A model generated the notes under the pieces. That model had not been told where the DNA came from. It did no database searches and worked only from the letters and a program-made list of their open reading frames with translations. From Eledone cirrhosa (lineage: Eukaryota), in contig OZ024760.1 in assembly GCA_964016885.1 (NCBI GenBank), forward strand, positions 27,900,001 to 27,964,000: a DNA stretch of 64,000 nt. The letters run 5' to 3'. Below are positions 1,317-63,250 of the stretch, in pieces. The translations under genes and the position numbers were made by a program. Each line of letters starts with the position of its first letter. Position 1 is the stretch's first letter.

Positions 1317-2749
1317 TTTATTGTATTCAGCCATGTAGAGCGAAAAAAAAAAAAAAAAAAAAAAAAATATATATATATATATATATGTGTGTGTCTGCAT
1401 ATGTATATGTGTGTGTATGTATATATGAGTGTGTATATGTATATATATATGTATACATATATACAAGTATACATACATATATATATATGTATACATACGT
1501 ATATATATATATATAGGAACGAATAGGACCAGACGGCGGAGTTCAAGCCGTTTCGACGGCTAATTCAGAAGTAGCCGTCGAAACGGCTTGAGCTCAGCCG
1601 TCGGGGTCCTACTCGTTCATATTACCCACTCTACTACCCTAAGTATTGATTACTTTGGTGCGTTATGGTCCAACTGGTTCCTTACCACACCTCCTTCGTT
1701 ATATATATATAAATATATACAAAGATATATATATATGTATATATATATATATATACACATAAACATACACACACACACACACATATATATATATAAACAT
1801 ACACACACTCGCACACATATATATATATATATACATAAACATACACACAGACACACACATATATATATATATACATAAACATACACACACACACACACAC
1901 ACATATATATATATATACATAAACATACACACACACACACATATATATATATACATAAACATACACACACACACATATATATATATATATATATATATAC
2001 ATAAACATACACACACACACATATATATATATATATATATATATATATATATATACATAAACATACACACATACACACATATATATATATATACATAAAC
2101 ATACACACACACACATATATATATATATATACATAAACATACACACACACACATATATATATATATACATAAACATACACACATACACACATATATATAT
2201 ATATACATAAACATACACACACACACACCCATATATATATATATATATATACATACATAAACATACACACACACACACACACACACACACATATATATAT
2301 ATATATATATATACATAAACATACACACACACACACATATATATATATATATATACATAAACATACACACACACACATATATATATACATAAACATACAC
2401 ACACACACACACATATATATACATAAACATACACACACACACACACATATATATATATATATATATATATATATATACATAAACACACAGACACACACAC
2501 ACACACACACACACACACACACACACACACACACACACACACACACATACATACATACATACATACATACATATATAGAGAGAGATCCTCTTTCCTTTCA
2601 GGCCTATTTAATTAAACATTTCCCATACAAGATGGCTACCTCCTCTTTTATTTTCAATTATTAAATAACAATGGACGTTATATGAGTTTCAGATAAATAT
2701 ATCGTTTAAGATTAATGTTAGTTGTTATAGACAACCAATTCCAGCTTGT

Positions 2750-3270
2750 ACTCTATAGTATCATCGCTGTTATATCCGTATATACCACCATTATATCCTT
2801 GTATAGAACCATTATATCTTTGTATAGCACCATTATACTCTTGAATATTACCATTGGTGTTATATCCTTGTATATTATCATTGCATCTTTATATAGTACC
2901 AATGCAGTTATATCCTTGTATAGTATCATTATATCCTTGTATAAAGTACCAGTAATTCACTGGGTAGTTGCTGGCCTTGTGCCAAAAAGTAGAAACAATG
3001 ATATCCTTCTATAGTACCATTGCTGTTATAGCCTTGTATAGCACCTCTATATCCTTGTATAGCACCATTATATCCTTGGATAGCACCATTATATCCTTGT
3101 ATATTACCATATCCTTATATAGCACCATTATATCCTTGTATATTACCATTATATCCTCGTATAGTATCATTATATCCTTGTATATTACCATTGCTGTTAT
3201 ATCCTTGTATAGTACCATTGCTGTTATATTCTTGTATAATATGATTATACCCTTGTATAGTACCATTGCT
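2750..3270. repeat. Minisatellite, 21/30-bp units (TATAGCACCATTATATCCTTG)
   Basis: Visible tandem units. Confidence 0.9.
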
Positions 3271-4224
3271 CTCACATCCTTTTAAGACAATTTTACTCTC
3301 TTCCTGCCATATTTCTAACGAAAGACATTACCGATGGTTTTCATATTATTTTGAAAATTACCAAGAATTCAGAAGGATTTTTGTATTATAATACACTTTT
3401 GGCAGAATCGGTAGAGTGTCGGACAGCTTGCTTAGCGGCATAGAGTAATGTCCCTTTACGTTCTGAGTTCAAATCCCGCCGATGGTAGCTTTTCCTTTCA
3501 TCCTTACGGGGTCGATAAAATAAAATACCAGTCACGCACTGGGGTCGATTTAATCGACGTTCCCTTCCGCCAAAATTGCTGGCCTTGTGCCTATGTAAGA
3601 AAGTGTTATTTTCCCGAATTGTTCAAGTCGTATGTTAACATCTTTCCTACGCCATAAATATTAATATACGTATATTTCACTTTAAAGTGCCTTGAAACAG
3701 GTTTTTGAACAAAGCATTTAGGTTTTGATTAAGAATATTTTACGATCAAAGAAAAAGGGTACATATATATTTAAATGCATATACATACATACATACATAC
3801 ATATATATATATATATATATATATATATATATATATATATATGTGTGTGTATATATGTATATATATATATACGTATATATATATACAAATATATATATAC
3901 ATATGTATATATATATATATACAAATATATATATATATATATATGTATATATTTACATATATATATATGTACATATTTGCATATATATATTTACATATAT
4001 ATATATGTATATATTTACATATATATATATGTATATATTTACATATATATATGTATATATATATACAAATATATATATATATATATATGTATATATTTGC
4101 ATATATATATATATATGTATATATTTACATATATATATATGTATATATTTACATATATATATATATATATATTTACATATATATATGTATGTATATATAT
4201 ACAAATATATATATATATGTAATA

Positions 4225-61760: not shown

Positions 61761-61917
61761 ACACACACACACCCACACACATATATATAACCAAATTAAA
61801 AGATATTTAATGCGATATTTAAAAGATATTTAAGTTTATATTTAATTTGGTTATTACGGCTCTAGATAAGATCCATTGCGATGTTTTGATTCATCATATA
61901 TATATATATATATATAT

Positions 61918-62445
61918 GGAAAGTTATATTTAAATTGTTGGGTTACAACTAGTAAATATTTATAACTGATATAAAAGCACTCAACAAGTATTTGGAGTAT
62001 ATTTACGATATTAAATAAATGGAAACTATATTTATAAAACCATATTTATTTCATTATATATATTTCAGGGATATCATATTAACAATATGTTATGCCTTCT
62101 TCAGACAAAATACAATATAGACAGTTTTATAGATAAATAGATTTGACATACCGTTCAACATCGACTTGTATTTGAAAAAGTTGATTTTCAAATACAAGTC
62201 GATGTTGAACGGTATGTCAAATCTATTTATCTATAAAACTGTCTATATTGTATTTTGTCTGAAGAAGGCATAACATATTGTTAATATGATATCCCTGAAA
62301 TATATATAATGAAATAAATATGGTTTTATAAATATAGTTTCCATTTATTTAATATCGTAAATATACTCCAAATACTTGTTGAGTGCTTTTATATCAGTTA
62401 TAAATATTTACTAGTTGTAACCCAACAATTTAAATATAACTTTCC
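61918..62445. repeat. Inverted repeat, 261-bp arms, 6-nt spacer, between (TA)n tracts
   Basis: Arms 61918-62178 / 62185-62445, no mismatch seen; one HHR per arm; relatives at 47581-47998 and 41460-41535. Confidence 0.95.
62251..62316 (+). ncRNA. Type-I HHR, C.C subclass (mirror copy on minus at 62047-62112)
   Basis: TATTTTGT-CTGAAGA-AGG C ATAACATATT gtt AATATGATAT C CCT-GAAA TATATATA-ATGAAATA. Confidence 0.82.
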
Positions 62446-63250
62446 ATATATATATATATATATATATATATACACACACACACACACGATTACTGGTTAT
62501 ACATACATACATACGCACATACATACATACATGCATATACACATACATAAACACAGACATACACATACATAGACATGCATATATATATATATATATATAT
62601 ATATATATATATATATATATGCAGTGTAAACAAACAAAGATGGTGAATATATATATATAATAAAGACTTTTGATGTATTGAAGGCTTCTTTGTTTTACTT
62701 TCTTAATTCTTCGGCTCTGTTTAACCACATTGAGCTATACCTTTTACTGTCATTTCTATAATACGAAGAGGGTGTTTAACTCCAACACGCTCCAGTATTT
62801 TAACCCTTATATATATATATATATATTCACCATCTTTGTTTGTTTACACTCTCGCTGTCCCCTTTATTTACATGTCCCAACGACTTTCTTTAGCCGTTGC
62901 TCGCACCAACCGGAGGTATATGGTCTTTAAAGCGAAGAAATACCGATGATGGTTGGAAGATCACTGATGAAGGACCACTTTATTCATATATATATATATA
63001 TATATATATACAAATATAAATTTAGCGAGAATCGCATTTCGGCGGGTAGTATATATGTATATATAGGAAAAAGTATGACCCCCGACGGCAGAGCTCAAGC
63101 CGTTTCGACGGCTATTTCGAAACGGCTTGAGCTCTGCCGTCGGGGTCATACTTTTTCCTATTACCCACTCTACTACCCTAAGTATTGAGTACTCTGGTGC
63201 GTTATGGTCCATCTGGTTCCTTACCACACCTCCTTCGTTATATATATATA

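Follow-up and report, generated by a model that had tools for sequence, protein, structure and literature searches.

An inverted copy with a tail on one side only is the standard architecture of inserted Penelope-like elements (PLEs) (PMC8557442, PMC3846280, PMC2377424). For head-to-head Penelope palindromes, self-priming on an antisense template was proposed in 2013 (Arkhipova et al., PMC3846280), while for the Poseidon element PAc of Anolis both target strands were found to be cut and extended in vitro, with a predicted dimer (Frangieh et al. 2024, PMC11167929). The formation of the inverted PLE end and the cutting of PLE hammerhead ribozymes in vivo count as open questions (PMC8557442, PMC4209133, PMC11167929). 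Here, we analyzed a stretch of 64,000 nucleotides from Eledone cirrhosa, hereafter the window (GenBank assembly GCA_964016885.1, contig OZ024760.1, positions 27,900,001 to 27,964,000, forward strand), in which a sequence-only reading had pointed out fold-back elements of about 185 bp that lie in (TA)n repeats and carry half of a hammerhead. That reading took the elements for footprints of Penelope-like integration, which our data bear out, and ascribed them to cDNA that snaps back at ribozyme stem II and primes its own second strand, which they do not. The fold-backs are head-to-head PLE stubs in (TA)n that probably arose by twin target-primed reverse transcription, run-off and end joining. 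Insertions of this kind are known; what the stubs may offer, judging from their DNA ends, is a sharper read-out of PLE reverse transcription together with evidence for hammerhead cleavage in vivo.

Related reactions are familiar from other retroelements. In LINE-1 twin priming, two target ends prime on one RNA and the products are joined by microhomology, and the two cDNAs cover different segments, whereas the cDNAs here overlap, so that a palindrome results. Retroviral minus-strand strong-stop DNA is a short, tRNA-primed cDNA whose synthesis ends by run-off at the RNA 5' end, after which it has to jump, whereas priming here would be by target DNA. Among PLEs, PAc resembles the present family in its two internal reverse transcriptase (RT) starts, which bound the tail, and in its AT-rich targets; the parts of PMC11167929 covered describe neither 5'-end run-off nor head-to-head joining. 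The Penelope palindromes of PMC3846280 are similar in their inverted pseudo-long terminal repeat (pLTR), optional tail, junction palindrome and TATA plus initiator-like words in the pLTR. Searches of the openly accessible literature showed no account of twin priming in PLEs, of strong-stop-like run-off at a PLE start site, or of copies that stop at the hammerhead cut.

We give arm coordinates relative to the G of the hammerhead GAAA (= 0) in the numbering of the parent element. What is directly seen is the parent, a fixed 3' end for each arm (the two ends being separated by 80 nt), a sharp 5' limit at about -18 and another at +23, and symmetric, heterogeneous junctions. In the mechanism we propose, an endonuclease would cut both strands of (TA)n, and each target end would prime a cDNA on the 5' part of the RNA, with the two starts at +42 and +122. 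The mRNA would start at -18 inside loop II and would hence bear only half a ribozyme at its 5' end. Both cDNAs would run off either the capped start or the ribozyme-cut end (+23); neither would jump, and the free ends would be joined head to head by 0-2 nt of microhomology, an untemplated A or short locally templated inserts, leaving a stub of ~185 bp. Longer copies would require a template jump or a read-through tandem transcript. The stubs supply exact coordinates for a predicted transcription start inside a ribozyme and for predicted cleavage, and this kind of junction mapping is transferable to any high-copy PLE family with no bench work.

Parent element and its hammerhead

A 33-mer extending upstream of the arm has 1,669 exact copies in the genome searched (3.0 Gb, the scope of all genome-wide counts below), and locus L115 holds a complete insertion between TA runs. 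This insertion consists of an inverted tailed arm, a partial tandem, a pLTR, the tail, an open reading frame (ORF) and a last pLTR that ends at +42. The ORF comprises 786 codons and contains YRDD and VIY...YIG, as in an RT with a C-terminal GIY-YIG endonuclease; the protein has 2,054 homologues (best E 7e-232), and a Pfam search gave no match to the ORF. Specifically, the protein has DKT at 184 (present in 112 of 120 homologues) and no DKG, RWR at 104 (RW[KR] in 114 of 120 homologues, 83 of them with RWK), a CxCX5C linker at 639, no CCHH, a single C between GIY and YIG, and CxxC..E at 737 and N..CxH at 756 around the conserved E and N. On these protein motifs, the parent is placed as a Hydra-type PLE. 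The Hydra clade, whose members have a C-terminal endonuclease, is described by Craig et al. 2021 (PMC8557442); it shares with the parent DKT, CxCX5C, the lack of CCHH, CxxC/CxH, GIY-YIG, (TA)n targets, a pLTR hammerhead and the inverted 5'-truncated copy with one-sided tail. Unlike usual clade members, the present family has RWR rather than RWK, a U3-A8 hammerhead core, an 80-nt tail in place of the 30-40 bp usually cited, and arms that number in the tens of thousands, most of them stubs sharing one fixed 5' limit. It also departs from the characterization of the clade as 'generally < 3 kb, canonical hammerhead', with tandem arrays of ~3.54-kb period and a UUGANAA core, although these clade traits are general and not strict.

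Two other identities were considered and rejected. The CX2-5CxxC linker, CCHH and DKG that mark the Neptune clade are not found in the L115 protein. A non-LTR (long terminal repeat) retrozyme is described as tandem units each with a complete hammerhead (bioRxiv 10.64898/2026.07.22.740005), whereas the stubs are inverted and lack the 5' core half. Additionally, near-identical 3.54-kb tandem arrays, among them those at L326-L329 (G000:C1:91.47-91.49 Mb), are candidate active source loci.

The parent pLTR can be folded as a type I hammerhead with stem I ACCCC/GGGGT, core TTGANAA, GAAA and GUC, a stem II of ~9 bp closed by G-C, a loop II of ~34 nt, and a stem III with palindromic loop; the predicted cut falls after GUC, i.e. 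after +22. The core TTGANAA, with any of the four bases at N7, is present in 59 of 76 parent-reaching arms, and eight of the 76 (e.g. L081, L176, L177 and L332) carry CTGAGAA, whose C3-A8 mismatch is predicted to lower activity. Across 15 aligned copies, 93% of the helix cells are paired, compared with 28-55% in slid controls. Three stem II pairs change on both sides, and since all three come from two copies of a single older subfamily, covariation support is thin. U3-A8 is a natural, active covariant of the hammerhead (PMC3088659, PMC4209133). The hammerheads of the Schistosoma PLE Cercyon (PMC4209133) resemble the parent in their U3-A8 core, short helix I, palindromic loop 3 and long helix II, whose 5' end has an unpaired base, and paired motifs on opposite strands are noted there; the parent differs in its helix III of 5-6 bp and its loop II of ~34 nt, which contains the predicted transcription start.

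The sequence-only reading was right that the elements hold the 3' half of a hammerhead, but GACGGCT, which it assigned to the 5' strand of stem II, is merely the mirror of the 3' strand. The true 5' strand in the parent is G-N-T-CGGCTA(TTT), located ~45-54 nt upstream of GAAA and almost never reached by arms. A parental pLTR with the 5' core exists as that reading expected, with the core ACCCC-TTGANAA and not GACCCC-CTGANGA. CTGANGA positioned 8-36 nt upstream of the core occurs 49 times genome-wide, and the 30 of these loci that were inspected proved to be junction or foreign sequence. In the window, Rfam gave 533 matches, of which the 150 listed are microRNA models on TA microsatellites below the gathering threshold, with no hammerhead among those listed.

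Ends and junctions of the arms

An exact arm 18-mer gave 74,567 matches genome-wide and exact short fold-backs gave 16,534, against 0 for the reversed-pattern controls of both; the fold-backs are therefore not due to chance. For structural counts, we used an unbiased sample made of a contiguous 464 kb around the window plus loci chosen on the core or tail only. Duplicates and edge cases were removed and loci chosen on upstream features, the 30 inspected CTGANGA loci included, were kept out of the unbiased counts, which left 411 of 540 arms and 155 head-to-head pairs, with tailed arms and three subfamilies over-represented by tail-anchored picking.

In 140 of the 155 pairs, one arm ends at +42 and the other at +122; 14 pairs include a damaged arm, a single pair is tail-tail and none is short-short. 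The tail end is set at +122, as computed values of +125 to +129 include chance matches into the TA repeat. TA repeats follow the arm end in 150 of 159 scorable tailless arms and 170 of 182 scorable tailed arms (320 of 341 in total, with 52 arms that lack an end motif left unscored). The left arm had been said always to be the one that ends at TAT; on the plus strand, the tailless arm in fact lies left in 73 and right in 67 cases (155 pairs). Long arms end tailless at +42 in 34 cases and tailed at +122 in another 34, and because they end at either position equally, both positions point to reverse-transcription starts. The TAT end had also been explained as the point where the cDNA is resolved by TA microhomology. 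Since +42 terminates long direct copies as well, both in L115 and among the long arms, a start of reverse transcription is the more plausible reading of the +42 end.

Of 102 scorable pairs, 87 have the same diagnostic segment in their two arms (after shuffling, 30.6 on average and 45 at most), both arms belong to the same subfamily in 101 of the 102, and private variants common to both arms number 5 in 4,496 sites. Both arms come from one source RNA or locus, which does not imply that one was copied from the other. The three variants once quoted as copy-specific substitutions turned out to be alleles of subfamilies with 7,461 (arm 58459..58510), 8,361 (tail arm 39804..39930) and 3,965 (fold-back 63063..63241) exact tail-bearing copies genome-wide. 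Arms differ from each other by 0.0079 per arm per non-CpG site, compared with 0.0082 for private tail changes; because the two rates are equal, there is no sign of later gene conversion, and arm identity does not stem from it, an origin that would have told against the sequence-only reading.

Each junction was built anew, as had been proposed: 79 insert-free junctions fall into 54 types. The commonest types are found again across subfamilies and in either orientation; -17/-14, for instance, is present in 10 copies (6 and 4). Overlaps between the arms are shifted toward microhomology, with 29% of junctions at 0 nt, 43% at 1 nt and 15% at 4 nt or more, versus 55%, 33% and 2% in simulation. Inserts occur in 61 of 140 junctions and are mostly short, local or A/T-rich. 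The diversity of junctions bears on the idea that the palindromes arise or are homogenized after insertion, by gene conversion or replication template switching, or that a palindromic master is copied in the manner of a miniature inverted-repeat transposable element. Such an origin would agree with the within-copy identity of the arms and the high copy number, but the arms diverge independently, the junction types are many, the ends are fixed and asymmetric, and an RT-encoding parent exists; we regard it as scarcely credible.

The junctions also bear on snap-back, in which a cDNA that starts at the tail would fold back and serve as its own template; later nicking and rejoining of the hairpin tip would then scramble which arm looks longer. 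Since the second arm of a folded cDNA lies within the first, the tail arm must reach further 5' under this model and the loop must measure at least 3 nt. Among the 140 pairs, the arm that extends further 5' is the tailless one in 69 and the tail arm in 56, and the two are equal in 15; where the difference is at least 20 nt, the tailless arm is longer in 23 pairs and the tail arm in 3. Consistently, the tail arm is the shorter one in 74 of the 100 lopsided pairs listed out of 206 genome-wide (scored by eye). Many junctions have loops of 0-1 nt, and of the 79 insert-free junctions only 15 fit a paired snap-back (9 with microhomology), while 41 are impossible even by an unpaired U-turn and 38 are possible. 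A fold-back at stem II would moreover keep loop II and the 5' strand of stem II in the spacer, yet no more than 2 of 140 pairs extend beyond -26: the pivot lies elsewhere and loop II is lost. Tail-tail palindromes, expected if copying runs on, are limited to the one pair among 155, and the +42 end is also that of long direct copies. The 5' limit is common to paired and unpaired arms, and blunt and 1-nt junctions with A on one or both sides are found at +23 (both below).

On the other side, the shared subfamily alleles of the arms, the 38 junctions that permit an unpaired U-turn and the 5 private variants common to both arms are what snap-back would lead one to expect. Weighing both sides, we consider snap-back improbable, and its simple form is already largely refuted. 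Thousands of natural reaction products argue against the self-priming published for Penelope (PMC3846280) and point to two first-strand cDNAs; in particular, the symmetry of the arms and the zero-loop junctions favor two separate first strands.

The 5' limits at -18 and +23

The first 5' limit lies near -18. Among the 411 arms, 232 start within -22..-12 (21 per nt) and 7 within -26..-23, compared with 5 within -60..-27 (0.15 per nt) and 30 further upstream. Within pairs, the arm that extends furthest upstream most often does so to -17 or -18. Unpaired arms show the same stop, so the limit is not a product of folding, and an older related subfamily stops at the same motif (by eye). This motif, TYAGTY in loop II, is found in 70 of 77 parent-reaching arms, with an invariant A at -18, and a TATA-like word stands ~29-31 nt upstream of this A; in L115 it starts 29 nt upstream and overlaps the 5' strand of stem II. 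TYAGTY is the Drosophila initiator, in which A is the first transcribed base, +1 (PMC6483594), and the D. virilis Penelope has an internal initiator-type promoter (PMC2377424). From these sequence features, we infer that -18 is a transcription start. At five loci (L307, L317, L320, L322 and L323), a unit that runs from -14..-21 via the tail into the ORF is joined to a unit starting at -14..-21, and the limit therefore belongs to the pLTR ahead of the ORF. Of 227 tail-to-ORF loci, 20 were examined, and most of these instead extend upstream as tandems with further pLTR sequence, the pattern that read-through or jumping should produce.

The second limit lies at +23. Very short fold-backs of two subfamilies occur at 311 loci. 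In the 50 of these that were listed (counts made by eye), both arms end at +23 in 27, of which 18 are unambiguous and 9 are blunt joints that would also fit +22 and 2 nt of overlap; one arm or both end at +23 in 39, and neither does in 11. A single A or T stands between the arms in 8 of the 50, and several have A on both sides. The same position stands out in the unbiased set, where 11 of 411 arms start at +22 or +23, compared with 0-2 per neighboring position from +18 to +30. Judged by its position, +23 would be the 5' end left by hammerhead cleavage after GUC. Copying of the strand by itself cannot make loops of zero or one base. Addition of untemplated A by RT suits run-off at a template end. 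For PAc, ribozyme cleavage was dispensable in vitro and no RNA-seq reads mapped to the cut (PMC11167929), whereas stubs here turn exactly at the predicted cut.

Twin priming could also operate with turning points that reflect RT stalls at RNA or ribonucleoprotein structure, at the foot of stem III (+22/+23) and at the top of an extended stem II (about -18). In favor of this, the folded ribozyme includes both turning points, the cluster around -18 is spread out, and ~8% of arms (35 of 411) pass -26. Stalling is, however, expected at the foot of a helix, whereas -18 lies past the 3' strand of stem II, where an initiator-like motif has its +1 base and a TATA-like word stands at the right spacing; the untemplated A and the poly(A) tracts seen at both positions are in keeping with run-off from a template, and +23 ends outnumber clear +22 ends among the 50 listed. 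Stalling thus appears unlikely, though it deserves to be kept in view. A splice acceptor at -18 with cDNA made from spliced RNA is far less probable still. The upstream sequence is acceptor-like (a pyrimidine tract, with AG at -18/-17), and the D. virilis Penelope intron ends in its hammerhead (PMC4209133), but none of the 61 junction inserts matches the upstream parent over more than 9 nt, the 9-nt match being self-similarity of stem II, and no recurrent upstream exon is present among 71 short unpaired arms.

Several points weigh against twin priming with run-off at a transcription start and a ribozyme cut. Both the start and the cleavage are read from DNA ends alone, and the initiator consensus is that of Drosophila and not of this host. 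The cluster at -18 is broad (-22 to -12) and far less sharp than the +23 class, and an extra base derived from the cap is not clearly seen at arm ends, where the signal is confounded by partner-arm sequence. The 38 of 79 insert-free junctions counted above geometrically allow an unpaired U-turn, and the covariation seen in the ribozyme comes from two copies of a single older subfamily. The class taken to mark the cut site comprises few loci, 311 in two subfamilies versus 16,534 short fold-backs (the search patterns differ), and its search selected for very short arms. Furthermore, +23 lies a single base away from the foot of stem III, after a run of G, so that an RT stall is possible there. 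Finally, since an mRNA from -18 holds half a ribozyme, the +23 class needs trans cleavage or read-through tandem transcripts.

Taken jointly, the two limits suggest a fuller scheme, which we put forward tentatively and with less than even confidence. The mRNA would start in loop II, so that only the downstream pLTR could cut in cis. A dimeric RT would start twice near the RNA 5' end, giving two strong-stop-like cDNAs; jumps would use the start-to-cut terminal redundancy, and failed jumps would become palindromes. The GUC class would then be in vivo evidence that the hammerhead of an endonuclease-bearing PLE cleaves RNA that is reverse-transcribed, and the tens of thousands of stubs would be a fossil record of the replication cycle.

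Further observations concern the region of the -18 limit. At L282, L280, L107, L183 and L299, poly(A) of up to ~20 nt follows the cDNA end at -18/-21, sometimes in both arms. At L002, L021, L024, L059, L089 and L295, an inverted repeat of unrelated sequence lies upstream of the -16..-26 stop and ends at or near the junction, as if a free cDNA end or target end had copied flanking DNA. Short tandems of the RNA 5' segment (from about -20 into the ORF) are present at L307:4700-5400, L317, L320, L322 and L323, and seven tail-to-ORF motifs with 299-bp spacing at G000:C2:356030076-356031890 may represent a longer array of this segment.

Copies in the window and other families

All five fold-backs cited by the sequence-only reading are real (1513-1702, 39745-39930, 46680-46848, 58459-58649 and 63063-63241), and so are the features it quoted: the window contains the arm strings, the unlike or 'flipped' loops, half a hammerhead (GAAAC...GUC), and a TAT end that abuts (TA)n. 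The first copy is old and diverged, with a tailless arm at 1513..1566 on the minus strand (-12 to +42) and a tail-bearing arm at 1572..1702 on the plus strand (about -8/-14 to +122). In the second, a tailless arm at 39745..39804 (minus strand) reaches -17 and overlaps the tail arm at 39804..39930 (plus strand, -4 to +122) by 1 nt. The 'flipped loop' lies in the tailless arm and consists of parent sequence absent from the tail arm; what looks like a flip merely reflects which of the two arms is less truncated. The third, at 46680..46848, has a tailless arm at 46680-46736 (minus strand) that reaches -14 and a tail arm at 46735-46848 from +9; the arms overlap by 2 nt, and 23 nt present in the tailless arm are missing from the tail arm.

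The fourth copy belongs to the subfamily of the intact parent L115 and comprises a tailless arm at 58459..58510 (minus strand, -9 to +42) and a tail arm at 58512..58649 (plus strand, -15 to +122). The latter contains the 3' half of the type I hammerhead at 58519..58554 (plus strand), identified by sequence, with its structure taken from the parent alignment. As ordered along the strand, this half consists of the 3' strand of stem II, GAAA (58527-58530), stem III with its palindromic loop, and the 3' strand of stem I, and the predicted cut falls after C58549. The one-sided tail of 80 nt follows at 58570..58649 (plus strand, +43 to +122) and in the parent runs on into the ORF. The fifth copy, at 63063..63241, is of the third subfamily; its tailless arm (63063-63118, minus strand) reaches -12, its tail arm (63117-63241) starts from -2, and the arms overlap by 2 nt. 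A putative start of a tRNA-like short interspersed element follows directly (63250 onward).

In addition to these five, the window holds a sixth fold-back, strongly truncated, at 59372..59495 (arms starting at +19, tailless, and at +36, tailed, with an insert of 11 nt), and a damaged one at 46376..46460, in which the left arm is cut, the right arm is tailless (-10 to +42), and the whole adjoins an arm from a different repeat family. There are also two solo pieces: a tail piece at 38705..38787 (minus strand, +40 to +122) with TA runs on either side, and a tailless arm of an older related subfamily at 56753..56804 (minus strand). A TA-rich microsatellite of 1.6 kb occupies 7030-8650.

Many other families share the layout of a palindrome plus one-sided tail in (TA)n, as observed at 46482-46660 of the window and in 98 TA-bounded islands. 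Several of these fold-back families carry the word GAGTGCT/GAGTACT in the tail, as does the L115 family. Where such families have a CTGANGA core, they pivot not in stem II but at varying distances upstream of the core. Families with CTGANGA at L107, L262, L266, L273, L287 and other loci end at GAAA directly before the TA run; because the insertion ends there, the rest of the ribozyme would lie past its end. At L001, L010 and L022, head-to-head chimeras consist of an arm from another family and an arm of the L115 family, joined near the usual turning point of each, and reflect either two RNAs primed at one break or a deletion between neighboring palindromes. Lastly, a different RT ORF followed by a PHD-like finger is found at L108:3045-4523 and L125:3247-4644.

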